Part shown: piece by piece, positions 4,647 through 58,392 of the stretch
How the letters are laid out: every line of letters begins with the position of its first letter
How positions within the stretch are numbered: the first letter of the stretch is position 1
Source of the DNA: Patescibacteria group bacterium
GTDB lineage: Bacteria > Patescibacteriota > Patescibacteriia > 2-01-FULL-39-33
NCBI GenBank assembly: GCA_041662745.1
Contig: JBAZRV010000002.1
Coordinates: 21,785-85,784 of the forward strand
Direction of reading: 5' to 3'
Length of the DNA: 64,000 nt
Translations under genes and position numbers: made by a program
The notes under the pieces: generated by a model
Told to the model about the DNA's origin: nothing
Databases searched by the model: none
What the model saw: only the letters and a program-made list of their open reading frames with translations

Positions 4647-7558
<2,912 letters not shown>

Positions 7559-43626: not shown

Positions 43627-44442
43627 ATGAGATCTAAATCTTTTAAAACACCGGAGTTTAAAGCTCCTGTTGATATTTCGGATGAATCCGAGAAAGACAG
43701 AGAAAATGAGCCAACATTACCGGAACGTCTTGATGATGGTGAGGCAGAAGAAGAAATCAACAAAAAGGTTGACTTAGCGGCAGTGATTGATGAATATTTA
43801 AAATTAGAAAGTGCCTGTTTTAAAGTTAATGATAGAAATACTATTATTGAGGCAACCGTTCAAGATTTAGCTCGCTTAGTTTTAGAATTAAAAGATAAAT
43901 TAGCCGATTATGATGCTATTGTCAGCGATGATAGCAGCGGCCGTTTACCCTCATTACTTTTTAGAAGAATAATTAATAGACAAAAAAGAAAAAGCGGCCG
44001 GAAGGGGATACAAACCTTTTTTGTTTCTAGCGGCCGTCATAATTATTCTGAAATAATTTCCGGTTTGAGAGAATTTTTTGTTAAGAATCAGGAACAATTA
44101 GGCAGGGTATTATTAGTTACAGAATATATTGATAGCGGCAGGAGCATTTCCAGGTTAATTGGTATTATGCAAGAAGCGGGGGTTAATTTTGATTTGGCCG
44201 CTGTTTCTCTGTCAGGTGATGCCGCTAGTTACAATGATCAACAGCAACTCTATCAGCATTTGAGATACGGCGGTGTAAATAACGGCGGTCTTTATTTTTT
44301 TGAGCATCCCGGTCGAGGCGTTAAGAAAAACTGCGATAAGGTTCATCCGGTAAAGAGTTTTGTGGTAAGTCAAAAAAAGATTAACGCCAGTCGCAATAAT
44401 ATTAATTATTTAGCCGATCAGTTAGCTGTTTTAGCCGATTAA
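43627..44442 (+). CDS. Hypothetical protein with an acidic N-terminus and a phosphoribosyltransferase-like motif
   Basis: VLLVTEYIDSGRSISRL resembles a type I PRTase PRPP-binding loop; weak. Confidence 0.35.
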   Translation: MRSKSFKTPEFKAPVDISDESEKDRENEPTLPERLDDGEAEEEINKKVDLAAVIDEYLKLESACFKVNDRNTIIEATVQDLARLVLELKDKLADYDAIVSDDSSGRLPSLLFRRIINRQKRKSGRKGIQTFFVSSGRHNYSEIISGLREFFVKNQEQLGRVLLVTEYIDSGRSISRLIGIMQEAGVNFDLAAVSLSGDAASYNDQQQLYQHLRYGGVNNGGLYFFEHPGRGVKKNCDKVHPVKSFVVSQKKINASRNNINYLADQLAVLAD

Positions 44443-45317: not shown

Positions 45318-46184
45318 ATGTTGTTAAATATCACAGTCTTAATAATTTTAATAATTTCCTTGATTTTGCTGGCTCGCATTATCTGGCGGCATTTGCCGGA
45401 ACTGAAGATCTTGGATATCAATTCCATTCCCAAGGAAAAACACGTTGACACCAAAGCTAAGATTTTGGAGTCAAAGTTTTTGCGCCAAAGCGATAAGACG
45501 CGCCAGCGTTTGGATAAAGTGATCGGGCCGATTAAGGCCGGCGTGGGCGGGTTGAAAAGCAGATTGCAAGAGCAGGTGCAGACATTGGAGAAAAAATATC
45601 AACGCCACGGGGAAGTAGAGGAGGCGAAAACCAAAAGCATCAACGATTTATTCGTGGAAGCGGAGCAATTGCTGGCTAAAGATGATTTGGCGGCGGCGGA
45701 AAGGGATTTGATTGAGATTATTTCCCGCGATAAAAAGAGTATCCGCGCCTATGAATTATTATCCGACGTGTATCGAAGCGGAAAAAATTATGAGCAGGCG
45801 GCCGAGGTGATTAAATATTTGATCAAGCTTAAATCGCTCAAGTACCGCAAAAAGAATCCGGTTGAACCGTTGCAAAAGGAAAAATTGGAAGATACGGAAG
45901 CGGCTATGCTGGAGACGATTAATGTGGATGTGGAAATCGCTGGCTATTATGATGACCTGGGCAAGGTTTATGAGATTTTAGGTAAAATTGACAAGGCTTT
46001 GGATAACTACCTCAAAGCCAACGCCATTGAACCCAATAACCCCAAATACCTGGATAAAGTCATTGATTTGGCTATTCTGGTCAAGGATAAGGGGTTGGCC
46101 AAGAAAACCTATCGCCAACTAAAGGAGATTAATCCGGAAAATGCCAAATTGGCCCGATTTAAAGAGGCGCTTGAAAAAATGTAA
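45318..46184 (+). CDS. Membrane-anchored TPR-repeat protein
   Basis: N-terminal TM helix; TPR-like helical repeats (AYELLSDVYRSGKNYEQAAE...). Confidence 0.55.
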   Translation: MLLNITVLIILIISLILLARIIWRHLPELKILDINSIPKEKHVDTKAKILESKFLRQSDKTRQRLDKVIGPIKAGVGGLKSRLQEQVQTLEKKYQRHGEVEEAKTKSINDLFVEAEQLLAKDDLAAAERDLIEIISRDKKSIRAYELLSDVYRSGKNYEQAAEVIKYLIKLKSLKYRKKNPVEPLQKEKLEDTEAAMLETINVDVEIAGYYDDLGKVYEILGKIDKALDNYLKANAIEPNNPKYLDKVIDLAILVKDKGLAKKTYRQLKEINPENAKLARFKEALEKM

Positions 46185-46214
46185 GAAGTGTGCTAAAATA
46201 GTTCTGTTGTTTTC

Positions 46215-46287
46215 GCCGTTGTAGCTCAGTTGGTAGAGCGCATCCATGGTAAGGATGAGGTCTCCGGTTCAAGCCCGGACAACGGCT
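46215..46287 (+). tRNA. tRNA-Thr (anticodon GGT)
   Basis: Cloverleaf folded by hand: acceptor GCCGTTG/CAACGGC, D-arm GCTC/GAGC, anticodon loop ATGGTAA, T-arm TCCGG-TTCAAGC-CCGGA; no encoded CCA. Confidence 0.85.
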
Positions 46288-46322
46288 TAGGTGGTAAAAT
46301 CGTATTATTAGGTTATAAACTC

Positions 46323-46404
46323 GGGTCGGTACCAAAGCGGTCAACTGGGGGAGACTGTAAATCTCTTGGCTCTGCCTTCGGGGGTTCGAATCCCTCCCGG
46401 CCCA
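46323..46404 (+). tRNA. tRNA-Tyr (anticodon GTA), class II with 13-nt variable arm
   Basis: Acceptor GGGTCGG/CCGGCCC, anticodon loop CTGTAAA, variable arm TGGCTCTGCCTTC, T-arm GGGGG-TTCGAAT-CCCTC. Confidence 0.85.
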
Positions 46405-46418
46405 TATCAAAAAGAAAA

Positions 46419-46446
46419 ACAGGATATTATCCTGTTTTTCTTTTTG
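46419..46446 (+). terminator. Terminator after the tRNA pair
   Basis: CAGGATA-T-TATCCTG palindrome followed by TTTTTCTTTTT. Confidence 0.7.
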
Positions 46447-46623
46447 ACTTGAGTTGTCGATAGGATTCGAACAGGCGGTTAATTGAGCCAGAAGTCCGAC
46501 GGAAGGAGGACGACGCAGCGAAATTACAGCCAATCCGAGCTGGCGTAGGATTGGCGACCACCCAGGACAGAAGAAATTGCCAGATTCTGCTGGCGATTTC
46601 TGTCGGAAATCCCTCCCGGCCCA
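46447..46623 (+). ncRNA. GC-rich structured element ending in a copy of the tRNA-Tyr 3' end (candidate tRNA-linked ncRNA or degraded att repeat), copy 1
   Basis: 5' GGATTCGAAC, internal helices (GCCAATCC/GGATTGGC; GCCAG/CTGGC), 3' CGGAAATCCCTCCCGGCCCA; own downstream terminator. Confidence 0.3.
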
Positions 46624-46632
46624 TAAATTTAA

Positions 46633-46660
46633 AAACGCAGGCTTTATGCCTGTGTTTTTA
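46633..46660 (+). terminator. Terminator after structured element 1
   Basis: ACGCAGGC-TTTAT-GCCTGTGT followed by TTTTT. Confidence 0.6.
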
Positions 46661-46671
46661 AATTTATAAGT

Positions 46672-46840
46672 TGAGAGCGGGATTCGAACGGGTCAGCAGT
46701 GAAGCAAGTTCCGAGGCGGAAGCCGAGGAATGAAGCTGAACGCCGACAGTTGCGACCCTGGGAGCAACTGGCGCTGACCCGGGACAAATGAACTCGTCGC
46801 TTTTGGGCGGCGAGTGAGCGCGGAAATCCCTCCCGGCCCA
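46672..46840 (+). ncRNA. GC-rich structured element ending in a copy of the tRNA-Tyr 3' end, copy 2 (diverged paralog of copy 1)
   Basis: 5' GAGCGGGATTCGAAC; long-range helix CGGGTCAGC/GCTGACCCG; hairpins CAGTTGC/GCAACTG and CTCGTCGC/GCGGCGAG; 3' CGGAAATCCCTCCCGGCCCA; possible -10 TATAAG at 46665. Confidence 0.3.
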
Positions 46841-46847
46841 ATTTTGT

Positions 46848-46877
46848 AAAAGAGTGGTTAATCGCCGCTCTTTTTGT
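46848..46877 (+). terminator. Terminator after structured element 2
   Basis: AAAAGAGTGG-TTAATCG-CCGCTCTTTT then TG. Confidence 0.6.
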
Positions 46878-46902
46878 TATAATAAATCCATAAAATAATT
46901 TT

Positions 46903-47754
46903 ATGGCAAATAATAAACAAGTCACTATTTTTGAGGGTCAGAAAATTCGTCGGCATTATGATGAAAAAAATGAAAAATGGTATTTTTCGGTTATTGATAT
47001 TATTGCCGTATTGATTGAACAACTTGATTTTAAAAAAGCCAAGAGTTATTGGGCAACTCTTAAAAATCGGCTAAGAATGGAGGGAAGTGAGGTGGTCACA
47101 AAATGTGACCAACTGAAAATGCAGTCGGCTGATGGGAAATTTTACCTGACTGATGTGGCCGATGTTGAAGTGATATTCCGTCTCATCCAGTCTGTGCCCA
47201 GCCCTAAAGCCGAGCCAATCAAGCTCTGGTTGGCTAAGGTTGGCTACGAAAGAATTGAGGAAATATCCGATCCTGAAAAAGCGCTTAATCGCAGCCGTGA
47301 TTATTGGCAGAAAATGGGCCGAAGCAAGCAATGGATCCAGCAGAGGATGATGGGTCAGGAAATCAGGAACAAACTGACTGATTATTGGAAGGATAATGAA
47401 GTTAAGAAACAAGATGAATATGCTATTTTGACAAACATAATCCACGAGGAATGGAGTGATCTATCAGTTAAAGACCATAAGAAATTAAAGGGATTGAAGA
47501 CGCAGAATTTACGCGACCACATGAGTGATGCGGAATTGGTTTTTACGGCTTTGGCGGAATTATCTACTCGTCAGATCGCGGAGACTATGTCGACAAAGGG
47601 TTTAGAAGATAATAAAATTCCCGCGAAAAGGGGTGGGCGAATTGCCAAGAATGCGCGGTTGGAATTGGAGCAAAAAACTGGCAGAAAAGTCGTCAGTGGA
47701 AATAATTTTTTTCAATCGGCTAAAAGTGGTAAAAGACTAAAGGGTCAAGGTTGA
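46903..47754 (+). CDS. DinD-like (DNA-damage-inducible protein D) / Bro-N domain protein
   Basis: Pattern similarity to E. coli DinD along the length (KWYFSVIDIIAVL..., KKLKGLKTQNLRDHMSDAELVFTA..., KRGGRIAKNARLELEQKTG). Confidence 0.55.
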   Translation: MANNKQVTIFEGQKIRRHYDEKNEKWYFSVIDIIAVLIEQLDFKKAKSYWATLKNRLRMEGSEVVTKCDQLKMQSADGKFYLTDVADVEVIFRLIQSVPSPKAEPIKLWLAKVGYERIEEISDPEKALNRSRDYWQKMGRSKQWIQQRMMGQEIRNKLTDYWKDNEVKKQDEYAILTNIIHEEWSDLSVKDHKKLKGLKTQNLRDHMSDAELVFTALAELSTRQIAETMSTKGLEDNKIPAKRGGRIAKNARLELEQKTGRKVVSGNNFFQSAKSGKRLKGQG

Positions 47755-47859
47755 TTTTGCGGGGTTTTTGTATTGGTTTTTGACCGAGGTCGGATTAGAT
47801 TCGAACTTTAGATAGTAAATAAATTTGAGATTTGGTATAATATAGCTATATTATTATTT

Positions 47860-48663
47860 ATGTATAATCCTCCAGCCATAAAATCCTCAAAATTTTGGCC
47901 ATTACTTAAAATTGGTTTTAGTCGATTTGTTAAGGATTTTTTCTCGCTCAAATCTTTTTATGTATTGGCTTATAATTTTGTACCGTTTTTAGGAGTGATC
48001 TTAAATTACTACGACTTTTATACTCTGATTTTTGTTTACCTTTTTGAAACTGTCATCTTGGCTTTTTTTGCGATATATAAAACATACTATTTCAAATGGG
48101 AAGAAGTAATGATTTATGCTCCAGTTACAATTATAATTGTCGGCTTTGTGACTTTTTTTGTTTGTTTTGTTGTGGTCGGTTCTATTTCTAGTGGTCAACC
48201 CTTTAAGCTAAGTAGCCTTCTTTTACACTATCCCTTAAAGAGTCCTCTCATAGTTATCGCTAACCTAATCTATTATACCCTTCAAGAGGGCTATTTAATG
48301 ATTAAATCCATGCAGTCTGGCGTTATGAGCAAAGTTAAGAGTTATTTGTCATCAAATTTGATTAAAACTCAAAAGGATTATTTGTTTAATATCGTACTTA
48401 ATCAAATAAATCCAGCCCTGGTCAGAGCGTCTACGCTGTTAGTAGCTGCTTTTTTTACTATGTTTGTTATTTTTCCTGCCGCGATAATATATATTTTTAT
48501 CCGTGCTTATAGCAACAGCGACATTCCTATCGAATATATATTTACTTATTCGGCGATGTTCAGTGTTTGTTTATGGAAGGGGATATTTGATATTTTAACT
48601 CGTATTAATGAAAAATATGATTCTGAAAAACTTAAGGAATTTGAGTTAAAATTAACGTCATAA
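47860..48663 (+). CDS. Hypothetical polytopic membrane protein (AT-rich gene, ~31% GC)
   Basis: 6-7 TM helices; strongly AT-rich relative to flanking genes. Confidence 0.45.
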   Translation: MYNPPAIKSSKFWPLLKIGFSRFVKDFFSLKSFYVLAYNFVPFLGVILNYYDFYTLIFVYLFETVILAFFAIYKTYYFKWEEVMIYAPVTIIIVGFVTFFVCFVVVGSISSGQPFKLSSLLLHYPLKSPLIVIANLIYYTLQEGYLMIKSMQSGVMSKVKSYLSSNLIKTQKDYLFNIVLNQINPALVRASTLLVAAFFTMFVIFPAAIIYIFIRAYSNSDIPIEYIFTYSAMFSVCLWKGIFDILTRINEKYDSEKLKEFELKLTS

Positions 48664-48692
48664 TTTTTTTATTTTAACTTAAAAAATAATTT

Positions 48693-50627
48693 ATGAAAAA
48701 AATTATCATTTTGGCATTCGCGCTGTTCGGTTCCTTGGCTCTTTTTATCGCCGTCTATGCGGATTATTCCCCGTCCCCAGGAGATATCATCAAAGTTGAT
48801 GATAAGACAAAGCCCGCGCTGTATCTGATAGACAGCCAAGGAAATCGCCAATTATACTCTAATGCGGTCACATTCTGGACTTGGCATAGCGGCGATTGGA
48901 ACAATATCAAGGATGTAAATGGCAATAAAGTGACGTTAAAGTTGATTAGCCAAAGCGATTTCGATAATATTCCGAGCACTAAAAATGTAGTTGCGAGAGC
49001 CAATTCGACTTTGCTGAAGTTCGACAATAGCGGCAATATTTATACTGTCGCTGATGATGGCGTAATCAACAAGGTTGCCACTAGTGATGATGATTCCGTA
49101 GCTAAAAAACTCTATGGCGATAATTATAAAAACCAAATAATTGTTATTCAAAATAGCTTTCAAAATGATTACATAGAGGGTCAGCCGTTGACTATTAGTT
49201 CAAGTGTACCCCAGCTAACACAACCGGGACAAGTACTATCTTATATTAGTTGTATTGATTCTGATTATGGATCAGATGGATCAGAGGCTATTTATGATTT
49301 CGGAAAAACTGTACTTAAAAACAGTAATGGAAACGATACTGCATATGAGGATTCTTGTTCTGATATATATACTAATAAAGAATGGCAGTGTAAGCATGAT
49401 GGCACAATACAAGCTGAATCTTTTTATATAGAATGTAGTAATGGTTGTGAAAACGGTCATTGTGTAAAATCATTTGATTCTTCGGTCTGTACTGATTCGG
49501 ATGGTGGACAAAACTACACTGTTCAGGGAGTAATTCGTGGACTCGGTTGGGATAATAAACCCCATGCTAATTTTGACTCTTGCGTAGATGCAACCGTATT
49601 ACGTGAAGGATTTTGCATAGTTCCTACTGGAAACGTAGTAGGCACGCTTTCTTCAAAAGATGTAACTTGCCCCAGTGGTTGTAAAAATGGTGCCTGCGTA
49701 AATCCAGATACTAGTTGTGTTACTGGCCAGCATAAAGAAAATGATAACTGCATATCCGATTTTCAAACCTGCACTATTGCCAATGGTACGGCGCAAAAAA
49801 GTTGGAATGGGACTACTTGGGGGGATTGCACGCTTGCTTCCTGCAATAGTGGTTATGAAAAATATAATAATGAATGTAAAAATAGCAGTTGTGTCGATTC
49901 TGATGGCGGTCAAAATTATTATGTGAAAGGAACTGCTACTATGGGTTGGCAAACTACACCAGATTGGTGCTCAACAGACAGTACTGGCTTAAATTCGGGC
50001 TGGATAGTCGAAGCATGGTGTGACAGTAATGGGATTAGGCAGGATTGGCACTTTTGTCCCGGTGGATGCAGCAACGGTACCTGTCTTCAAGCTACTAGCT
50101 GTTCTTCTGGTCAGCATTTGGAAAATGATCGTTGTGAGGCCAATATAAAATCTTGCAATATGTTGTATGGAACGGGTCAGCAGACATGGGCTAATGGCGC
50201 CTGGAGCGATTGCCAAGCAGTATCTTGTAGTACAAATTATGAAATAAAAAATAATATCTGTGTTGCTGCAACAAAATATTGTAGTCAAACCGATGACGAC
50301 ACCGATACTGGTTTCGTAGTGGGTACTGGAATTCAAACCTGGAATGGCGATTCATGGGGTATGTGTAATGCGACCTCCTGTCTGCCAGGATTTGAATTGA
50401 ATGGAAATAGGTGTTTTGCCTCTTTTCATCCTAATTGTGTTGATTATGATAGTGGTAAAGATTATTTTACTAAGAGTTATACTATGTTTGGTAGCGGTTT
50501 TGGCTATGATTATTGCGATACCAGTCATAATAATGATTTAGGCGAATGGTATTGTTTGAATAATATGTATAATTTGCAATATTATACTTGCCCCAAGGGT
50601 TGCAGTAATGGGGCTTGCATTCAATAA
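48693..50627 (+). CDS. Secreted modular cysteine-rich repeat protein
   Basis: Signal peptide; repeated modules CxDSDGGQNYxVxG, CPxGCxNGxC, and 3 copies of C..GQH.END.C...C...GT.Q.W.G..W..C...C..GYE..NN.C. Confidence 0.55.
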   Translation: MKKIIILAFALFGSLALFIAVYADYSPSPGDIIKVDDKTKPALYLIDSQGNRQLYSNAVTFWTWHSGDWNNIKDVNGNKVTLKLISQSDFDNIPSTKNVVARANSTLLKFDNSGNIYTVADDGVINKVATSDDDSVAKKLYGDNYKNQIIVIQNSFQNDYIEGQPLTISSSVPQLTQPGQVLSYISCIDSDYGSDGSEAIYDFGKTVLKNSNGNDTAYEDSCSDIYTNKEWQCKHDGTIQAESFYIECSNGCENGHCVKSFDSSVCTDSDGGQNYTVQGVIRGLGWDNKPHANFDSCVDATVLREGFCIVPTGNVVGTLSSKDVTCPSGCKNGACVNPDTSCVTGQHKENDNCISDFQTCTIANGTAQKSWNGTTWGDCTLASCNSGYEKYNNECKNSSCVDSDGGQNYYVKGTATMGWQTTPDWCSTDSTGLNSGWIVEAWCDSNGIRQDWHFCPGGCSNGTCLQATSCSSGQHLENDRCEANIKSCNMLYGTGQQTWANGAWSDCQAVSCSTNYEIKNNICVAATKYCSQTDDDTDTGFVVGTGIQTWNGDSWGMCNATSCLPGFELNGNRCFASFHPNCVDYDSGKDYFTKSYTMFGSGFGYDYCDTSHNNDLGEWYCLNNMYNLQYYTCPKGCSNGACIQ

Positions 50628-50769
50628 CTAATTTATATTGTTTAGCGGTAAGGCAAGATAGTTTCTTTAGTTAAAGTGTAAATTTTTTTTTCGGTTCGGA
50701 ATAACGGGATTCCGCGCCACATTACACTTGACAAGTGGTCAAACAATACCATAAGATATAAACATAAAG

Positions 50770-50812
50770 TCTCCTGCGCCAGTGAAAGCTGAGTGCAGGA
50801 CTTTTGTTTTTT
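50770..50812 (+). terminator. Terminator downstream of the Cys-rich gene
   Basis: TCCTGC...GCAGGA hairpin followed by CTTTTGTTTTTT. Confidence 0.5.
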
Positions 50813-50823
50813 AATACGAAATA

Positions 50824-50853
50824 AAAAGACGCCGAGAACTTTCCGTTCTCGGC
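50824..50853 (-). terminator. Terminator for the minus-strand gene 50878-51255
   Basis: GCCGAGAAC-TTTCC-GTTCTCGGC; T-tract on the minus strand. Confidence 0.6.
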
Positions 50854-50877
50854 GTTTCGTACGATTTGAAAGATCAA

Positions 50878-51255
50878 TCACCCCCTCGCTTCTTTTATGA
50901 GTTGTTTGAACCTTTCAGTTTTTTCATCGAATTCAATGTAGAGCTCAACATTGGGAAAACGGCCAAAATCACCTCGTTCAAAATCGTCGGCGCTTTCGCC
51001 TGTCAGGAAAAAGATGAACCTTATTTGCGGATTTCTCTGCACGCATTCCAACAGTTTTTCCCATTGTCGGCGATTTAGTGTTGGATATACAAGTAATACA
51101 TTAAGGTTTAATGGGTCATTGTCATCTCTCTCGTTATTGGCGCCTAGATATGATAACTTATCAATGTACTGGATATGAACTCCCTGTTCGTCGGCTAATT
51201 TGCAGAATACATGCATGCAGCTTGGCATATGTTTATCAAACAACCCGATTCTCAT
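50878..51255 (-). CDS. Hypothetical protein with flavodoxin/receiver-like alternating beta-alpha pattern
   Basis: MRIGLFDK...NVLLVYP...IRFIFFLTG; no canonical REC Asp pocket. Confidence 0.4.
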   Translation of the reverse strand: MRIGLFDKHMPSCMHVFCKLADEQGVHIQYIDKLSYLGANNERDDNDPLNLNVLLVYPTLNRRQWEKLLECVQRNPQIRFIFFLTGESADDFERGDFGRFPNVELYIEFDEKTERFKQLIKEARG

Positions 51256-51355
51256 TGCATTTCTCCTTCTTCGTTGTTATTTTTTAGCTTAATGAAAATG
51301 TAAAAGTGCGAGTAGAGAACAATCTTCGTCGCTATTATATCCTGTTTACCGAATT

Positions 51356-51402
51356 TTGTCAAGAAATTAGATGTTGACAAATTATATTATATGCTGTATG
51401 AT
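51356..51402 (+). promoter_or_regulatory. Promoter (TTGACA-17-TATGAT) overlapped by the inverted repeat TTGTCAA-N11-TTGACAA
   Basis: Seen directly; lies ~160 nt upstream of the GC-rich gene, with a GC-rich hairpin-containing leader in between. Confidence 0.4.
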
Positions 51403-51561
51403 ATATCATTAGTTCATTAACAGGTTGATAAGTTTTATGTCCTGGCTTTCTTTTTGTTTAATTTAAGTTAAATCAGATAAAAAGAAAGCCGGGAAAAGTC
51501 CTGGTTTCTTCCTGGCCGTAGCGGTTGGGAATACTGCCTCACAGAGGCGGAAAGGCAAGTT

Positions 51562-52350
51562 ATGGCAAGACGCAAGGCAAGTGTGGCAGCTCTTTTGGCC
51601 ATGCTGAAAGATCTGAGCCCGGAAGAATTATTGGCCTTGACGGACAATCCCGGCGAAGTGAAGAAGCTTGGTGGCGAGCTTGTCATCAAGGAAATCGTGA
51701 ATACTTTCGCCATTCCCTTGTCCGACAGTGAGATGCTGGAGCGATTCCCGCAGTTCGCCGATCGTCTCATCCCCTGGCGCAAGCTGGCGGCTCTGATGGG
51801 CTACACTGGTCCCGTCGCCTGGCTTATCAAGCAGGGCTTCACACTGAAGAAGCACGCCCCGCTCGTCGGCCCCTGCTACGATAATCTCGGCTACCTTCAG
51901 GGCTGGAATTTCGGCGACAATCCCACCGACGATTGCCTGGTGTTCTGGGTGCCCCGTTTGGCGAAGAATAGCACGGGCAAGACAATCAAAGCGATGGAAA
52001 AGCACCGCGCCGAACTCAAGAAGCGCTATAAGCTTCCTGGCAATCACGCGACCTACTTCGGCTCGATTCAACTCCAGTTTGCTCTCACCCTCGCGCATTT
52101 TAAGCGCACGGGCGAACGCGTACCGCTGAATCTCCGCTATGCCGCGTCGGACACCTTGTATAACGGCTCTCGTCTCATCGCTGGCTCTTTCGAAGACAGC
52201 GGGTTCTACTGCGACCATTGGGCCGAGTTTGGCTTCGGCGGTATCGGTTTCGTGCTTCTGGGAGTGGAGAAGCTCAATCAACAAAACTCCACACCTCAAC
52301 CGGGAGATGAAAAATGCTTGAACGAAAAGCTCGGCAACGAAAGAAATTAG
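51562..52350 (+). CDS. Hypothetical protein, GC-rich (~56% GC); distant paralog of 32329-33093
   Basis: RBS GGAAAGG; shared motifs with the 32329 protein (TxNPxE, GFxL...PxxGxC, HFKRTGE...SDTLYNG); abrupt GC shift. Confidence 0.5.
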   Translation: MARRKASVAALLAMLKDLSPEELLALTDNPGEVKKLGGELVIKEIVNTFAIPLSDSEMLERFPQFADRLIPWRKLAALMGYTGPVAWLIKQGFTLKKHAPLVGPCYDNLGYLQGWNFGDNPTDDCLVFWVPRLAKNSTGKTIKAMEKHRAELKKRYKLPGNHATYFGSIQLQFALTLAHFKRTGERVPLNLRYAASDTLYNGSRLIAGSFEDSGFYCDHWAEFGFGGIGFVLLGVEKLNQQNSTPQPGDEKCLNEKLGNERN

Positions 52351-52619
52351 CACTGGTTATCAGTTTGATGGTAATGGCGCCCTTGATGTTGATTCTGGCA
52401 GTCCTAACCGTTCAAGCGGAGAATCGCCTGGCAAAGCAGTCGCCGACAGTTGATCAGCAGTCTTCGCCGGCAGCTATGGATTCGTCGGCAGACATAGAAC
52501 AGATAAGCAGTCCGGAAGCGAATAATTTGTCGCAAAAATACTTGAGCGGCATGAGAGGCCCGGACAGCTTTTATCTGGAACGGGCGGAAACGGAACAACA
52601 AGAAGCAAAAGAAAAGTAA
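52314..52619 (+). CDS. Small membrane-anchored protein co-transcribed with the GC-rich gene
   Basis: Overlaps the upstream gene by 37 nt; one TM helix then a Ser/Gln-rich tail; terminator follows. Confidence 0.4.
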   Translation: MLERKARQRKKLALVISLMVMAPLMLILAVLTVQAENRLAKQSPTVDQQSSPAAMDSSADIEQISSPEANNLSQKYLSGMRGPDSFYLERAETEQQEAKEK

Positions 52620-52626
52620 GCACAAG

Positions 52627-52654
52627 AAACGGACCATCGCGGTCCGTTTTAAAA
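52627..52654 (+). terminator. Rho-independent terminator
   Basis: AAACGGACC-ATCGC-GGTCCGTTT then TAAAATT. Confidence 0.65.
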
Positions 52655-52809
52655 TTCATGGCTTTATCCGTATTAGCGGGGCAGTCGTTCAATTTTTGTT
52701 TTATCACCCTTGATTTTATTCCGTTATCTGTTATGATACAATAATTATATAAATTCGCTAAAAATCACCAGCCTTGAGCCGGCGAGCCAAGATAAAATAA
52801 GATAAACTT

Positions 52810-54978
52810 ATGAAACCAACCAAAAACAAAATTATTCTGACCGCAGTCATTATAGCGGTCTTGGCAGCGCTTTTGGCCGTTTGGTTTTTATGGCCGAAGA
52901 GCCAGCCGATAATTGATCAGCGTTATTATAACGGTCCGACCGGCCTTAACCTGATTGATCGGGCCTTGGCCGAAGAAAAAATTGATTCGGAAACAGCGTT
53001 GATTTATAAAGTGAAGTTTATTTTCCGCGATCCGACTTTGCCCCAGGAGTATTTTACCAAGGAGTTCCCGTTTGAAGAGGGCGGAGTTTTTGCGGAAGTC
53101 AGCGAGAATTGGGACAAACTGTCCCCAACCGCCAAGGAAATATTAGCGCCTTACTTTAAGCGTCCCGACGATTCGGAGAGTTACATCAGCCAAAAGCTTA
53201 ACAGTGAAACGCAGAATCAAGAAACGGGCTTGGGATTGATCAAGGCGGCTCAGGCTTTTGACCGTCCCTTGTCTTATAAGTCTGACGATAGCCTGATTAC
53301 GGCTGATGGCAAAATAAAAGTTTGGTATTTAGAAAAGAAAGAAACCATTAACGGCCGGGAAAATATTACTAAAATTTATTATGGTACGGCTCAAAAAATC
53401 GTCGCCAACTTAAATACTGACGGGGCCTATGCCCAATATGTCGGTTTACTAGGAAAAATCCCGCCCAGTGATGGGACTTTAGGCGGCGACAGCAAGACTG
53501 ATATTTATGTCGTGTCCACTGGTTATAGTTTATTGCTTAATGATGATAATTCGTCTTCTCAAGGGGTTAACGCGCCAGACGGTCCCACGAATGGAAGCAG
53601 TTTTATTTTAATTCGTGATAACTTAAACGCCAAGCATTTAAAAACTACGACCGTTCATGAAATCTTCCACGCTTTCCAGCGGGCTTTTAATTGCCGGCTG
53701 ACCAAAGCCAATTGGTGGTGGATTGAAGGCACGGCCACTTGGTCGGAAGACATGATTTATCCTAAGGAAGATTCCGAACAAGGCTATGTGGAGAGTTTTA
53801 TGCCTAGGCCCGACACCAGCTTGTTTAAAAACGGCGATAATTTTGAATATGGCGCTTATCTTTTTCCGTTTTATCTCTCCAATACTTACGATCGGATGAT
53901 TGTCACTAAAGTTTTTGAAAATTGCAAAAGCGATGGCGATCCTTTGGCTAGCGCCGAAGCAACGATTGACGGCGGTTTTAAAAAAAATTGGAGAGAGTTC
54001 GCTTTATGGAATTTTAATCAACAGCCGGTTGAATATTACAAAAAAGCCGATCAAAGCAAAAAATTTCCGGCCGATACTTCGCAAAAAAGCAATAATGATC
54101 TGATTTTTTTGGCGCCGGGCGAAAACACTATTCCTACCAAAGAATTAAACCCCCTGACAGCCCAAGTGATTGAAACTTTTTTCAGCGAATCGCAAGGCGT
54201 GCGCAAGGCGGTTTTTAAAAATTTTAAAAATTTTACCGGCAAAAGCGCTAAGGGAGCGATAAAAGCCATAATTTATCCCAAGAATAACGGCCAGCCGTAT
54301 ATTGAAGATTGGACGGAAAAGGAAAGCCGCAGCTTTTGTTTTGATAAAGCCGACGATAATTTTGATAAGATAATCTTGATTTTCAGCAACGCGGAATTGA
54401 AAAATAAAATTGCAGCAACCGGTATCAAGGTCAAAACTCTGGAGTCTTGCTACGCAATTGATCAGGGCGAAACTATGACCGTCAAGCCGATTTTCGCCGT
54501 AACGTCGGGCTATGTTGGCACGTTGAAATACCAAGCCGAGGGCGGCTTGGTTAAGGATTCCGTGCCGGCCGCGGCCAAGTATCCTTACTTGGGTAAGTGG
54601 CAGGTCAAAGTTGATTATTTGGAGCAATTTCCGCCCCAAAGAGTGGTGGCGATTACCGCCAGCGAGATGGATTTCGCTTATAACCATTATTTGGAATTTG
54701 ATTTGAGCGCCGATTCTGTTTTAAAAGACGGCACGGTTGAAGTGACCACTAAGGAAGGCAAGTTTGAGACCCCGGGCTGGGAAATCCATAATGAACTGTC
54801 CGGCCAGACAGCGACCATTCCCAAAAATACCACCATGTGGGATGTGCCGCAGAAAGGCGTGATTACGGAAATGACCGCAGACGGCTGTAAGATCAGCTTG
54901 CCCGATTTCGTTTTGTATAATTCCGGCGGTTATCGCAGTTTGCCCCATCCGATAGTTTTGGAAATAAAAAATAATTAG
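52810..54978 (+). CDS. Membrane-anchored large extracytoplasmic protein with an HExxH...E gluzincin-like motif (putative zinc metalloprotease)
   Basis: N-terminal TM; TVHEIFHAFQRAF...WWWIEG. Confidence 0.4.
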   Translation: MKPTKNKIILTAVIIAVLAALLAVWFLWPKSQPIIDQRYYNGPTGLNLIDRALAEEKIDSETALIYKVKFIFRDPTLPQEYFTKEFPFEEGGVFAEVSENWDKLSPTAKEILAPYFKRPDDSESYISQKLNSETQNQETGLGLIKAAQAFDRPLSYKSDDSLITADGKIKVWYLEKKETINGRENITKIYYGTAQKIVANLNTDGAYAQYVGLLGKIPPSDGTLGGDSKTDIYVVSTGYSLLLNDDNSSSQGVNAPDGPTNGSSFILIRDNLNAKHLKTTTVHEIFHAFQRAFNCRLTKANWWWIEGTATWSEDMIYPKEDSEQGYVESFMPRPDTSLFKNGDNFEYGAYLFPFYLSNTYDRMIVTKVFENCKSDGDPLASAEATIDGGFKKNWREFALWNFNQQPVEYYKKADQSKKFPADTSQKSNNDLIFLAPGENTIPTKELNPLTAQVIETFFSESQGVRKAVFKNFKNFTGKSAKGAIKAIIYPKNNGQPYIEDWTEKESRSFCFDKADDNFDKIILIFSNAELKNKIAATGIKVKTLESCYAIDQGETMTVKPIFAVTSGYVGTLKYQAEGGLVKDSVPAAAKYPYLGKWQVKVDYLEQFPPQRVVAITASEMDFAYNHYLEFDLSADSVLKDGTVEVTTKEGKFETPGWEIHNELSGQTATIPKNTTMWDVPQKGVITEMTADGCKISLPDFVLYNSGGYRSLPHPIVLEIKNN

Positions 54979-54996
54979 TTTGCCAAATAATTTTTA

Positions 54997-56007
54997 ATGG
55001 CCACCCCTTTTAAAAAATTAATAGTGATTCTCGGTCCGACCGCCACCGGCAAAACCCGCTTGGCGGTCGCTTTGGCGCGACGCTTTGGCGGTGAAATAAT
55101 CTCCGCCGACAGCCGGCAGGTGTATCGGGGCATGGATATCGGCACGGGCAAGGATTTGCAAGAGTATGTTTTGACTGGGTCGGCCGTGAAATCAACCGGG
55201 CGGACCGGTAGGGCCTTAAAAGGGCATTCTGGAAGGGTGCTGGGAGGCCATAAAACGACCGGCAATATGCCTTATCATTTAATTGATATAATTCAGCCGA
55301 TGACGCCGTTTAACGTCGCCAAGTATCAGAAGCTGGCCTATCGGTCTATTGAGGGAGTGTTAGCCCGAGGCAAGGTGCCGATTCTATGCGGCGGTACGGG
55401 CCTCTACATTGACGCGGTGACCAGGGGCTATGAGTTTGGCGGGGCGTTGGCGGACAAGGAGCTTAAGGCGTTGCGCAACAGGTTGGATAAATTGTCCCTG
55501 CCCCGGCTTTTGGCGCGATTAAAAAAAATTGACTTGCCGACTTATAAGACGATAGATCGGAAAAACCGCCGGCGCGTGCAAAGGGCGGTAGAGATTTATT
55601 ATCAAACCGGCCGGAAGAAATCCGTCGGCGACCGGCCGGTCAAGTCGGATTATGATTTGCTGATTATCGGAGTGAAGTTTCCGCTGGCGGAGATTTATCG
55701 CCGTATTGACAGCCGGCTGGAAACACGAATCAAGGAGGGGATGATCAAAGAAATAAAAAAACTCCGCCGGCAGGGCGTGAGTTGGAAGCGCTTGGAGGAA
55801 TTCGGTTTGGAGTATCGTTATGTGTCGCGTTATTTGCGTGGCCTGATCGGCTATCGGGAAATGTTGGAGCAACTCAGGAATGAAATCCATCATTTCGCCA
55901 AACGGCAGCTGACTTGGTTTAAAAGAAACAAAGACATTGTTTGGGTTAACGAACCCCAAGAGGCCGAGCGAGCCATTGACGGTTTCCTTAAAAAATTACC
56001 ATTATAA
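54997..56007 (+). CDS. miaA: tRNA dimethylallyltransferase
   Basis: P-loop ILGPTATGKT; SRQVYRGMDIGT; insertion within the core. Confidence 0.85.
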   Translation: MATPFKKLIVILGPTATGKTRLAVALARRFGGEIISADSRQVYRGMDIGTGKDLQEYVLTGSAVKSTGRTGRALKGHSGRVLGGHKTTGNMPYHLIDIIQPMTPFNVAKYQKLAYRSIEGVLARGKVPILCGGTGLYIDAVTRGYEFGGALADKELKALRNRLDKLSLPRLLARLKKIDLPTYKTIDRKNRRRVQRAVEIYYQTGRKKSVGDRPVKSDYDLLIIGVKFPLAEIYRRIDSRLETRIKEGMIKEIKKLRRQGVSWKRLEEFGLEYRYVSRYLRGLIGYREMLEQLRNEIHHFAKRQLTWFKRNKDIVWVNEPQEAERAIDGFLKKLPL

Positions 56008-56008
56008 A

Positions 56009-56041
56009 CCGCCACATTGATTGTGTGGCGGATTTATTTTT
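56009..56041 (+). terminator. Terminator after miaA
   Basis: CCGCCACA-TTGATTG-TGTGGCGG then ATTTATTTTT. Confidence 0.7.
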
Positions 56042-56293
56042 GACCGCACAATTATTTGTGATTTATTTATGATTCGCCATCTTTAACTTCTTTAGAGATT
56101 TTTTGAGAAAGCGGATTCTGGTCAAAATCTTGCCGTCCCCGTTATAATCTTATTTGTTTCTGGTTTTAAGTTTAATCATTGGTTAATTAGTTTGTCGGTT
56201 TTTTTTATCAATTTTTATCATTATTTTTATCTAATTTTATACATTTATAAGCTATGGGTTACGTATTGGATAATGTTTGCGTGGATAAACTTT

Positions 56294-57295
56294 TGTTTAG
56301 TTAACAGTCAAGGGTGACACTTTGGATTGGATTGATACCATATATTGATTAAACTTTTGTATTGGAGTTAAACCGTTCATGTTCTTGCCCAAATGGTATC
56401 TCTCATGGTTGTACCAATGAACGTATTCTCTCAAACTCTTGAATGGCTTGCCGGGATTTAAATAGTACTCGTCATCTACGCTCCGATTAGCCCTTTCAAC
56501 TTTGCCGTTCCAAGGAGCGCTTCTCTTGGGAATGAATCTCTGATTGATGCCGCTATTTTTAACATGGCTGGCAAAGCCGCCTCGAAACTCTCCGCCATTG
56601 TCAGTCTGCAGTCCCTTGATCTCGAAAGGAAAGAATCTCTTGGCTTTCTTCAACGCGATCATCGATGTCGGCGCATTCCGGCTGTAGCAGTCGACAGCTA
56701 ATTGCATATTCGTGTAAGTATCGATGAATCTGTATTGATAGTTCCAAACTCCCGGTTCTTCCTCTGATGGCACGTATTTTACGTCTAATTGGACGTTTTC
56801 TCCTGGCTGTTTGGCTTTGTAGGGCTCTTTCATGGGCTGATACCAAGGTTGTTTTCTCTGCGGCTTCCTGATCAATTTCTTCTTCTTGTAGTAGCGGTAA
56901 ATTATCGTAGTCGAGATATCGACATTCAATTTCTCTTTGACATGGAGTTTCATCTTCTTCGGCCCATAATTGTATTTGAGCTTGGCATCGTAGATGAAGC
57001 ATCTGACTTGAGAAGTCATCTTCAACTGGGGATGGAGCTCACGGCTGATGTGTCTGTTAGAGCCGTAACCATGATCCTTGTTGTACCATTTGTAGTAGGT
57101 CTTGCGAGAAATGCCGAAGATATTGCAAACCTCTTCAATCGTTTTTCCATACTTTTCGACCTGGCGATACCATCTGAACCTCATTTCCTGAGGAGCGCTA
57201 AGCGGTGATCCTGGCATATATTTGGCTGATTTTAGGTGAGTTAACAGTGTCACCCTTATCCTACCAGAATGTCACCCTTTAATGTTAACTGTACA
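56294..57295 (-). mobile_element. IS481-family insertion sequence (~1.0 kb) with imperfect terminal IRs and a 5-6 bp target-site duplication ACTTT(T)
   Basis: IR-L TGTTTAGTTAACAGTCAAGGGTGAC vs rc of IR-R TGTACAGTTAACATTAAAGGGTGAC; flanking ACTTTT at 56289-56294 and 57296-57301. Confidence 0.7.
56297..57217 (-). CDS. IS481-family DDE transposase
   Basis: N-terminal HTH; integrase core with VQLDVKYV, LQTDNGGEF, APWNGKVERANRS; stop lies inside IR-L. Confidence 0.75.
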   Translation of the reverse strand: MPGSPLSAPQEMRFRWYRQVEKYGKTIEEVCNIFGISRKTYYKWYNKDHGYGSNRHISRELHPQLKMTSQVRCFIYDAKLKYNYGPKKMKLHVKEKLNVDISTTIIYRYYKKKKLIRKPQRKQPWYQPMKEPYKAKQPGENVQLDVKYVPSEEEPGVWNYQYRFIDTYTNMQLAVDCYSRNAPTSMIALKKAKRFFPFEIKGLQTDNGGEFRGGFASHVKNSGINQRFIPKRSAPWNGKVERANRSVDDEYYLNPGKPFKSLREYVHWYNHERYHLGKNMNGLTPIQKFNQYMVSIQSKVSPLTVN

Positions 57296-57300
57296 ACTTT

Positions 57301-57329
57301 TTGACAAAAATATCAATGTATGCTATAAT
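57301..57329 (+). promoter_or_regulatory. Consensus sigma-70 promoter (TTGACA-17-TATAAT) immediately abutting the IS right end
   Basis: Seen directly; drives the 57397 gene with a ~60-nt leader. Confidence 0.55.
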
Positions 57330-57396
57330 TATATATTCCTCATTGGGAGGAAGGCACCTACACAATCGCAGTTAGCAACACAGAAGGGAAATTGCA

Positions 57397-58335
57397 ATGC
57401 GTAACATCGCGGTCTTCACGATCTTGCTGGCCTGTGCGTTTTTGGTTTTGGCGGTTTCGGCTTTTGCTGACGCCCCTTATCATGACGCCGATACCAATCA
57501 GGACAACAAAATAGAATTGTCCGAACTTTTGCGCGTCATTCAGTTCTTCAATATGGATGGGTATCATGCTTGTCCGGAAGAGGGAACCGAAGACGGCTTC
57601 TGTCCCGGCTTATCTCCGAGTGAAGGCGAAGGAGAAGGCGAAGGAGTCGAAAGTTATACCGTCTCCTTAGTAGCTGATCCTCCTGATGCTGGTACCATAA
57701 ATTTTATGCCGGATTCTTCGGAAACAACAATGACCGTTGAAGGCGGTACAAGAGTGACTATTGGCGCAACGGTTTTTCCCGGCTGGTATTTTAATCGTTT
57801 TAAGATAGTCGATTCTACTGGCCATACCGTTTATTCGACGATCAACCCCTTCTCGATTATCGTTTGGGATGATCAAGTTGTCACCGCTCAATTCGTCCTT
57901 AATTACGTGTCGGTCCCGACTATTTCATTCCGTTGCAGTTCAAGTAGCGATATCCAATTATCTGTTAGGATGCCCAGCGGTAATAATCTCCACAGCTACT
58001 TGGTTGATCCGACCATTGGCCATCTCAACTATGTGGGAGTAGCCGGACCAAACGGAAACTGGGTATGGGATCCGGAAACTAGCCCTCGCAATCCGGATAT
58101 CGTAATTATTGAATCAGAGACTTACTGGTTGATTCAATTAACCACTAATTTTGAGTCCTGGGCACCGGATCATTTCCGTGGCAATCTGTTTGCTGTGGAT
58201 GACACGGGCCAGATGTCGTTTTTTGACCTCAGCCAATGGTCGGTCAATTACGGGTTGGATGATTCAGTGGTGGTTGATGATGGATCCGGCGAATTGGCGA
58301 TTGAATTCCTTCGGGATGATGGCGACTGCTACTAG
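57397..58335 (+). CDS. Secreted protein with an N-terminal DxDxNxDN-I-xLSELL calcium-binding-like (dockerin/EF-hand-like) motif
   Basis: Signal peptide; YHDADTNQDNKIELSELLRVIQFFN; EGEGEGEG linker; paralog at 63838. Confidence 0.5.
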   Translation: MRNIAVFTILLACAFLVLAVSAFADAPYHDADTNQDNKIELSELLRVIQFFNMDGYHACPEEGTEDGFCPGLSPSEGEGEGEGVESYTVSLVADPPDAGTINFMPDSSETTMTVEGGTRVTIGATVFPGWYFNRFKIVDSTGHTVYSTINPFSIIVWDDQVVTAQFVLNYVSVPTISFRCSSSSDIQLSVRMPSGNNLHSYLVDPTIGHLNYVGVAGPNGNWVWDPETSPRNPDIVIIESETYWLIQLTTNFESWAPDHFRGNLFAVDDTGQMSFFDLSQWSVNYGLDDSVVVDDGSGELAIEFLRDDGDCY

Positions 58336-58392
58336 AAAGTAGTCACTACGACAGACGCACCTTACGGGCGGTCAGCAAGAGCTGGCCGTCTA

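Follow-up and report, generated by a model that had tools for sequence, protein, structure and literature searches.

The interval between tRNA-Tyr and miaA in a patescibacterial genome: probably a plasticity zone formed by several small events

Introduction

The 64,000-nucleotide stretch analysed here (the window; contig JBAZRV010000002.1 of a Patescibacteria group bacterium) contains, behind a tRNA-Tyr gene, an interval in which segments of very different composition and an insertion sequence (IS) follow one another. A first-pass annotation, made from the sequence alone, had described positions 46215-57330 as one tRNA-anchored mosaic region of accessory character. Comparison with related genomes leads to another view: the interval from tRNA-Tyr to miaA-gatB is probably a plasticity zone, where several small and independent events of different ages have accumulated, and not one island. 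An old, core-like block shared at the genus level would underlie the interval. A horizontally exchanged target gene of a diversity-generating retroelement (DGR), present in the absence of the retroelement, would form one layer in it, a recent AT-rich gain of two genes another, and a recent IS beside a lineage-specific gene yet another.

The comparison loci are denoted by L-numbers, and coordinates refer to the whole 64-kb stretch unless a locus is named. The overall GC content of the window is about 45%, and its housekeeping genes (ligase, PBP2, GyrB, AsnRS, ScpAB, TIM, FBA, GatB and ThyX) form a set typical of Patescibacteria (Candidate Phyla Radiation, CPR). Database entries that match proteins of the window exactly carry the label "Patescibacteria group bacterium", and the nearest species representative is a metagenome-assembled genome of Candidatus Buchananbacteria (L011), the FBA of which is 90% identical. 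The genus-level set comprises the window, L011 (with L017) and L028, each at about 80% nucleotide identity, and the family-level loci were found via homologues of the TPR protein encoded just upstream of tRNA-Thr (45-58% identical in L018, L020 and L023).

It is extremely improbable that the mosaic is an artefact of assembly or binning, i.e., a chimeric metagenome contig. The sequences do come from metagenome assemblies, and there are short contigs that end at the IS and directly behind the tRNAs; however, an independent ENA assembly (L001/L003; a 150-kb contig) is collinear with the window and 99.99% identical over 35.3-64 kb, IS included, which argues that the mosaic was not produced by assembly. 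The sister genomes, moreover, hold the flanks and most of the interior.

Conserved Flanks and a Replaceable Interior

At the family level, the left flank, which ends in the order ScpA-ScpB-S11-TIM-FBA-TPR-tRNA-Thr-tRNA-Tyr, is kept in L018, L020 and L023, and the right flank (miaA, the gene of a 189-aa protein, GatB and ThyX) is also kept in L018. Everything between tRNA-Tyr and miaA differs: there are glycosyltransferases, a PD-(D/E)XK protein and SIMPL in L018, glycosyltransferases and a PAS protein in L020, and a DGR in L023. Since the flanks are conserved and the interior is replaced among the relatives, the tRNA-to-miaA interval is, judged by gene order, a true variable hotspot. The synteny comparison suggested in the first-pass annotation thus supports an accessory hotspot, and the boundaries drawn there make sense at family depth.

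The conserved left anchor is tRNA-Thr(GGU) at 46215-46287 (plus strand), which stands beside the TPR gene in L011, L017, L018, L020 and L023. The variable interval begins after tRNA-Tyr(GUA) at 46323-46404 (plus strand), conserved in L011, L018, L020, L023 and L028. Both tRNAs are called by ARAGORN and Rfam, in agreement with the start that had been given for the region. On the other side, miaA (54997-56007, plus strand; tRNA dimethylallyltransferase, IPPT match with E 1e-61) occupies the equivalent position in L011, L028 and L018. The gene had been correctly identified, but it is a core gene and the right anchor at the family level, and not part of the accessory content.

Among the relatives, genuine integrases are found at this locus only in L021 and L022. 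The TPR protein there is the same as in L020 (96% nucleotide identity to L020), and two tyrosine integrases come directly after a rearranged tRNA-Thr. L021 (6735-7165) and L022 have a tRNA-Thr cut down to its 5′ half and, 130 nt further on, a second tRNA-Thr copy; about 190 nt split this copy directly behind the anticodon, and the two integrases come next. ARAGORN and Rfam call neither a tRNA nor an intron at this interrupted gene. A group I intron was rejected, there being no Rfam match; it could be an intron-containing tRNA carried on an integrated element.

Gene Order Within the Genus

In L011 tRNA-Tyr is followed by one copy of a structured element (E, described below), a 125-aa orphan gene (minus strand), the GC-rich gene, the gene of an HExxH protein, miaA, p84 and p189 (both on the minus strand). 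The order in L028 is one E element, a Bro-N-type gene (85% identity), the GC-rich gene, a small membrane protein gene, a HIT gene (minus strand), the HExxH gene (82%), miaA, p84 and p189 (again both on the minus strand). The DNA that the window has in addition to both of them is confined to 47786-50822 and 56006-58392, so that the share of the claimed 11 kb found in its lineage only amounts to about 5.4 kb.

The window, L011 and L028 are about equidistant, and at least six slots of one or two genes differ among them by presence or absence: the Bro-N-type gene, the pair of a membrane and a Cys-rich protein, the 125-aa orphan, the small membrane protein, the HIT gene (in L028 only), and the IS with the gene of a 312-aa protein. 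Because the divergences of Bro-N, HExxH, miaA and p189 are mutually consistent, these genes look vertically inherited. The orphan, the GC-rich gene, HExxH and miaA are syntenic in sister species, and they diverge like their neighbours. Conservation of order and composition across relatives had been named in advance as what would make the region core, and in this regard the outcome is mixed: the GC-rich gene, HExxH and miaA are kept, and the segments 47786-50822 and 56006-58392 are absent. The end placed at 57330 has to be moved, as the variable DNA continues to 58392 and takes in the 312-aa gene. In L028 (1-4420) the genes ahead of tRNA-Tyr are not TPR and tRNA-Thr but those of an FN3/purple-acid-phosphatase-like protein and of an ABC transporter of MacB type, which places the breakpoint of a rearrangement directly upstream of tRNA-Tyr in that genome.

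The swings of composition that first drew attention are real at synonymous sites. The GC content of third codon positions (GC3), scored over 63 open reading frames (ORFs), has a mean of 0.512 and a standard deviation (sd) of 0.079, against 0.302 and 0.318 in the AT-rich pair and 0.688 in the GC-rich gene. The tetranucleotide analysis that had been proposed as a check gave a narrower picture: the distance has its window-wide peak at 47.5-49.5 kb (z = 4.1), at the AT-rich pair, and the remainder of the claimed island, with z < 2, is not outlying. The reported drop in the density of housekeeping genes was confirmed, with no housekeeping-family match among the genes of 46.4-55.0 kb.

One may ask if the interval is simply ancestral core DNA with gene-specific composition, the differences being due to deletions in the relatives. 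Small genomes of this group tend toward gene loss, and the pattern of the Bro-N-type gene is more simply explained by a loss in L011; in addition, the family of the 262-aa gene is GC-rich in nearly every genome that carries it, and an AT bias at the first two codon positions is usual in membrane proteins. Such an explanation is nevertheless unlikely. The AT-rich pair is absent from both sister species, has a GC3 about 2.5 sd under the window mean and is the strongest tetranucleotide outlier of the 64 kb; more distant relatives have wholly unrelated genes in the interval; the divergence of the GC-rich gene is incongruent with that of core genes; and the duplication around the IS is intact, with near-identical copies of the IS present elsewhere.

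The Two Lineage-Specific Segments

The first segment is an AT-rich insertion of about 3.0 kb (47786-50822), with its left edge set by the alignment to L028 and its right edge by the alignment to L011. It encodes a multi-pass membrane protein (47860-48663; GC 0.313) and a 644-aa Cys-rich secreted protein (48693-50627; GC 0.395), and the values of GC3 given above uphold the earlier description of a strongly AT-rich gene pair, which appears to be a recent gain from an AT-richer donor. The N-terminus of the 644-aa protein is hydrophobic and 40 of its residues are Cys, as its description as Cys-rich and secreted had implied, and the protein resembles surface proteins of CPR and of DPANN archaea ("eight-cysteine-cluster", S-layer-type). 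Seven transmembrane segments had been ascribed to the membrane protein; its hydropathy profile has three strong segments (about 5-6 by eye), and the number seven is not established. Only two relatives of this protein are present among 1.84 billion representative proteins. The two genes were also considered as a conserved module, and this was rejected on account of those two relatives and of the closest homologues of the Cys-rich protein, which occur in unrelated contexts without the membrane partner.

The second segment (56006-58392), likewise absent from L011 and L028, consists of an AT-rich spacer, the IS and the 312-aa gene. The IS481-like element is 1,002 bp long (56294-57295, minus strand; transposase ORF 56297-57217/57253), has inverted repeats of 33 nt (TGT...ACA, 82% complementary) and is bordered by a 5-bp target-site duplication, ACTTT, at 56289-56293 and 57296-57300; from the repeats and the duplication it follows that the IS moved by DDE transposition. 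The intact duplication had been correctly recognized, and the assignment to the IS481 family stands as the best match only: the transposase scores 160 bits with the NCBIfam model of IS481 (NF033577), below the 224-bit cut-off, 88 bits with IS3, and 33.2 bits with rve (cut-off 32.6). The length of about 1 kb, the single DDE (rve) transposase with an N-terminal helix-turn-helix, the TGT...ACA repeats and the short target duplication are shared with the IS481 family, yet at this score the element is a distant member at best. Copies 99.5-100% identical are found on other metagenome contigs with different flanks, and the IS is recent.

The IS is inserted 5 nt upstream of a promoter, TTGACA-17-TATAAT, at 57301-57329. 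Its right end lies exactly 5 nt from TTGACAAAA in three contexts (window 57296-57329, L008 1-60 and L009 1-30), and in the window TTGACAAAA is the -35 box of the promoter of the 312-aa gene. L008 and L009 have no matching duplication on the left side. This placement suggests either a promoter-proximal target preference or chimeric short contigs. The 312-aa secreted protein itself (57397-58335) is lineage-specific and matches no family; its N-terminus is hydrophobic, and near it lies an EF-hand- or dockerin-like calcium-loop motif, DADTNQDNKIELSE.

Structured Elements Behind tRNA-Tyr and the Question of an Integrated Island

The 16-nt 3′ end of tRNA-Tyr, AATCCCTCCCGGCCCA, is present in three copies, at 46389, 46608 and 46825, and no further copy was found anywhere in the window with up to 3 mismatches. 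The tRNA-like elements of the first-pass annotation correspond to two units of about 175 nt, bounded by these copies and with an own hairpin after each copy: E1 (46450-46624, plus strand), structured RNA-like, ending in the 16-nt tRNA-Tyr 3′ end and with a hairpin at 46407-46447 ahead of it, and its paralogue E2 (46667-46841, plus strand). The spacing of the units is 217-219 bp. The window thus has two copies, and the sister species have single ones (L011 12005-12177; L028 4550-4721).

E2 and the L011 element are about 87.5% identical and share one identical run of 72 nt, compared with about 80% for the neighbouring coding DNA, and the minimum free energy of E2 gives a z-score of -3.1. In the L028 element most of the helices have changed in sequence with the pairing retained, and in the RNAalifold consensus of four sequences 21 of the 49 pairs have compensatory changes. 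By this comparative evidence, E1 and E2 are conserved structured RNAs and not scars of attachment (att) sites, and the main sequence argument for an integrase-type insertion therefore falls away. A covariance model built for the element scores E1 with 157.8 bits, a match by construction, as E1 is one of the training sequences, and it found no new copy in 35 loci. Rfam matched only the two tRNAs, both in the search of the whole window at the gathering threshold and in that of 46100-47000 with E up to 10, and a gapped E-like pattern was not found in viral contigs.

In the predicted structure a closing helix pairs 5′ GUUG...GGGAUU with the copied tRNA 3′ end AAUCCC...CGGC, leaving the encoded CCA as an overhang; since its pairs are invariant across the sequences, this detail of the model is suggestive. 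If folded in this way, the E RNA may imitate the acceptor/T-arm half of a tRNA whose T-loop carries an insertion of 140 nt. The arrangement is reminiscent of E. coli tyrT/tyrV, where 178-bp tandem units, each of which is reported in the older literature to carry the tRNA 3′ end, also follow tRNA-Tyr, and where the last copy overlaps the 3′ end of tyrV and an RttR RNA is annotated. The RtT RNA of E. coli is freed from the tRNA operon transcript (Bosl and Kersten 1991, as cited in PMC4986893). By analogy, the E RNAs may be released from the tRNA-Tyr transcript by tRNA-processing enzymes. The likeness is one of genomic arrangement, known here from sequence: there is no sequence similarity to RtT (no match to Rfam RF00391 at E up to 10 over 46100-47000), and unlike the E. 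coli repeats the units of the window are divergent paralogues with their own hairpins.

These elements bear directly on the idea of a single integrase-mediated island or prophage remnant at tRNA-Tyr, in which the copies of the tRNA 3′ end would represent att scars left by successive integrations and the integrase would be lost or would lie outside the window. The adjacency to a tRNA, the 16-nt tRNA-Tyr core repeated three times, the presence of a Bro-N-type gene, the atypical composition and the integrases at the equivalent locus of L021/L022 all agree with it. Yet the three cores are crowded into 450 bp at the proximal end, none of them bounding the region, the sequences between them are structured (the compensatory pairs and the interspecies identical stretch described above), the sister species keep most of the genes in synteny with divergence at the vertical level, and in the phage collection a homologue of the Bro-N-type protein is present in only four unannotated fragments. 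There is, moreover, no integrase in the window or in the next 4.3 kb, where tblastn was run with the two integrases of L021 and a Pfam scan, limited to the larger ORFs, found only a DDE transposase; the search for an integrase or recombinase gene just outside the window, which the first-pass annotation had recommended, was thus negative for these 4.3 kb. Nor is there a distal att site, AATCCCTCCCGGCCCA being confined to the proximal end. An island of this kind is therefore very unlikely.

When set against the usual marks of an integrase-type island, the interval is next to a tRNA, but it has neither a recombinase nor bracketing att repeats, and it is not absent from relatives as a block. Of the single tRNA-anchored island, then, the hotspot beside the tRNAs holds and the one integrated block does not. 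With tRNA-linked islands of tyrosine-integrase type the interval has in common the tRNA adjacency, the variable content and the partly atypical composition, and relatives such as L021/L022 do have real integrases; it differs from them in being a sum of small indels, much of which is inherited vertically within the genus. Closer parallels are offered by the concept, from comparative genomics, of integrase-free "islets" of horizontal gene transfer (HGT) filled by homologous recombination, with their conserved flanks, replaceable interior, small cargo and no dedicated recombinase, although recombination through the flanks is deduced in the present case and, to our knowledge, few integrase-free HGT hotspots have been documented in Patescibacteria.

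The GC-Rich Gene and Its Retroelement Family

The GC-rich cassette, the compositional outlier on the other side, consists of a 262-aa gene (51562-52350, plus strand) and a conserved leader ahead of it (51374-51561, plus strand). With a GC of 0.553 and the highest GC3 of the 63 ORFs, the gene is as exceptional as had been claimed. Mismatches to L011 fall on the three codon positions as 54/47/92, and this concentration at third positions means that the segment is protein-coding on the plus strand. A structured RNA was considered for the GC-rich segment and rejected in view of the third-position substitutions and the large protein family; Rfam had no match in this segment. The protein belongs to a family of about 240-aa proteins which is widespread in Patescibacteria and without a Pfam model. 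Its AlphaFold2 model has a pLDDT (predicted local distance difference test) of 89, and Foldseek gave no significant match in the PDB, with Mtd and C-type lectins among the weak matches.

The nature of this family is apparent from L023. A homologue there lies directly after tRNA-Thr and tRNA-Tyr, and downstream of it come a 92-aa ORF, a 108-nt stretch that repeats the 3′ end of the homologue, bAvd and a reverse transcriptase (RT). Between the variable repeat (VR) and the template repeat (TR) of this locus, 20 of the 21 mismatches are at template adenines, and about 17 further loci have the same pattern; adenine-specific mismatches together with Avd and RT are the signature of a DGR. The family is represented in 51 metagenome loci. 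About 20 of them possess Avd or RT, an adenine-specific VR/TR pair, or both; many of the rest lack all of these in spite of ample flanking sequence. The closest known systems are DGRs of the type of Mtd of the Bordetella phage BPP-1, with which the family shares the adenine mismatches and the adjacent Avd and RT at about 20 loci.

Unlike such a DGR, the copy in the window is without TR, Avd and RT within the 64 kb: there is no second copy of the VR, and tblastn with the RT and Avd of L023 found nothing in the window. The VR-equivalent segment (52153-52260) differs from the TR of L023 at 59% of adenine sites and at 11% of other sites, and L011 and L028 are alike in this respect. This adenine-site-specific divergence and the 75.5% amino acid identity to the L023 target lead to the conclusion that the gene is or was a DGR target, i.e., on comparative evidence, it is a DGR variable-protein gene whose retroelement has been lost or separated. 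Remote DGR targets exist, and one DGR clade is confined to Patescibacteria (PMC8144416).

The gene has also diverged less than its surroundings would predict. Third-position mismatch between the window and L023 is 36% in the GC-rich gene, compared with 57-63% in TPR, FBA, TIM and S11, and a divergence below that of core genes indicates transfer between lineages. The gene is as close to the copy of the distant genome as to the copies of sister species, and its GC3 is 0.69 in three genomes. The leader has promoter-like TTGACA...TATGAT motifs, a 27-bp hairpin at 51440-51494 and, ahead of the start codon, another small hairpin. The same leader is also found in L028 (5806-5935), L023 (9770-10000) and L029 (about 5800-6000), and it is kept between genomes with core proteins about 45-60% identical, so it travels with the gene; in L023 the hairpin has a 35-nt insertion at the tip, with the stem preserved. 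At least five loci have the DGR-target gene just downstream of tRNA-Thr/Tyr, which fits recombination through a conserved tRNA flank.

The family as a whole stands 10-25 GC points above its host loci (51 loci, L025-L075), e.g., 0.61 vs 0.35 in L066, and this enrichment extends beyond the adenine-depleted VR. In L049 (6001-7449), from a genome of 29% GC, two tandem DGR-target paralogues lie downstream of tRNA-Thr.

The leader hairpin and the gene may thus form a mobile unit that passes between Patescibacteria and enters the slot after tRNA-Thr/Tyr, and a DGR located elsewhere in the genome may continue to diversify the gene in trans. The joint proposal, that E1/E2 are a new family of tRNA-Tyr-linked structured RNAs and that the GC-rich cassette is a mobile unit, possibly diversified in trans, is put forward tentatively, and we consider it somewhat less probable than its failure in one part or another.

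The Bro-N-Type Gene and Other Genes of the Interval

The 283-aa Bro-N-type protein (46903-47754, plus strand) had been called DinD/Bro-N-like. The Bro-N part of this name is borne out by a weak match to Pfam Bro-N (23.4 bits, below the cut-off of 25.6) and a full-length match to PADLOC PDC-S13 (E 1e-118, residues 1-275), and phrog_15286 is matched as well; the DinD part is not supported over the whole protein, as the BLASTP similarity to E. coli DinD is marginal and confined to 49 residues with E 0.03. PDC-S13 is a label for a candidate-defence family, so a role of the window protein in defence is putative; it was not mentioned in the literature searched, and no solved structure was matched by the protein sequence. 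The gene is present in L028 with a third-position divergence of 39%, as in the neighbouring genes, and absent from L011. From this comparison it looks inherited and common to the window and L028, and a phage origin was rejected, the four phage fragments mentioned above being its only homologues of that kind. In a distant locus, L068 (1259-3062), a Bro-N/PDC-S13-type gene lies directly upstream of a homologue of the GC-rich gene (42% and 46% identity), and the same holds for L028 (4802-6795); the adjacency of Bro-N and DGR-target genes may not be accidental.

The 125-aa orphan (50878-51255, minus strand) is found in L011 (62% identity) and absent from L028, and it matches nothing in Pfam, NCBIfam or PADLOC. 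Its earlier description as receiver-like is not supported: a single-sequence model (pLDDT 63, hence of low confidence) has no CheY-like receiver among its Foldseek matches, and by eye there is no Asp ending the central strand. A small membrane-anchored protein (52386-52619, plus strand; 77 aa from the ATG at 52386, or 101 aa from 52314) is also encoded in L028 and was not found in L011. It is followed by the gene of a 722-aa membrane-anchored putative metalloprotease (52810-54978, plus strand), syntenic in L011 (79.5%) and L028 (82%), in which a HEIFH motif and one N-terminal hydrophobic segment agree with the HExxH protein originally described, and which matches DUF6055 and the MXAN_6640 HExxH family.

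Gene content also varies to the left of the tRNAs. A 271-aa gene (43627-44442), situated between TIM and FBA and with a GC3 (0.294) lower than that of any other gene in the window, occurs in L011 (62% identity) and in the contig P0088 and is missing from L016, L018, L020 and L023, where TIM and FBA are adjacent. The segment 42015-42870, with a 123-aa ORF and an Sm_multidrug_ex protein, is missing from L011, L018, L020 and L023, in which TIM comes directly after the S11 peptidase gene.

Concluding Remarks

How would such an interval be renewed without an integrase of its own? In the proposed mechanism, cassettes such as that of leader and DGR-target gene would be exchanged by homologous recombination via the conserved tRNA flank, after uptake of DNA. 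Several points weigh against the reading of the interval as a plasticity zone. Only three genomes represent the genus and they form a near-trichotomy, so that gain or loss in each slot is decided by parsimony and composition. Recombination through the tRNA flank is a step that we infer. Integrase genes were searched for in the window and the 4.3 kb beyond it and DGR genes in the window, and a remote integrase or DGR could lie elsewhere in the genome. The membrane protein of the AT-rich pair has low GC also at the first and second codon positions, part of its AT-richness thus being a matter of amino acid content, and at 47786 and 50822 no junction repeats or other traces of a mechanism were detected.

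Little is documented on how genes are gained and turned over in the small, streamlined genomes of Patescibacteria, and the locus provides a concrete and bounded example. As a plasticity zone it would be a tRNA-adjacent hotspot where surface, secreted or hypervariable cargo turns over one or two genes at a time, with an active IS and a DGR target parted from its retroelement. Swings of composition, taken alone, overstate the size of an island, as the lineage-specific share of the 11 kb demonstrates. Two parts of the interval, the E RNAs and the GC-rich DGR-target cassette, merit study in their own right. The cargo is mostly secreted, membrane-anchored or of hypervariable binding type, and this would fit selection acting on the surface and interaction repertoire of an episymbiont.

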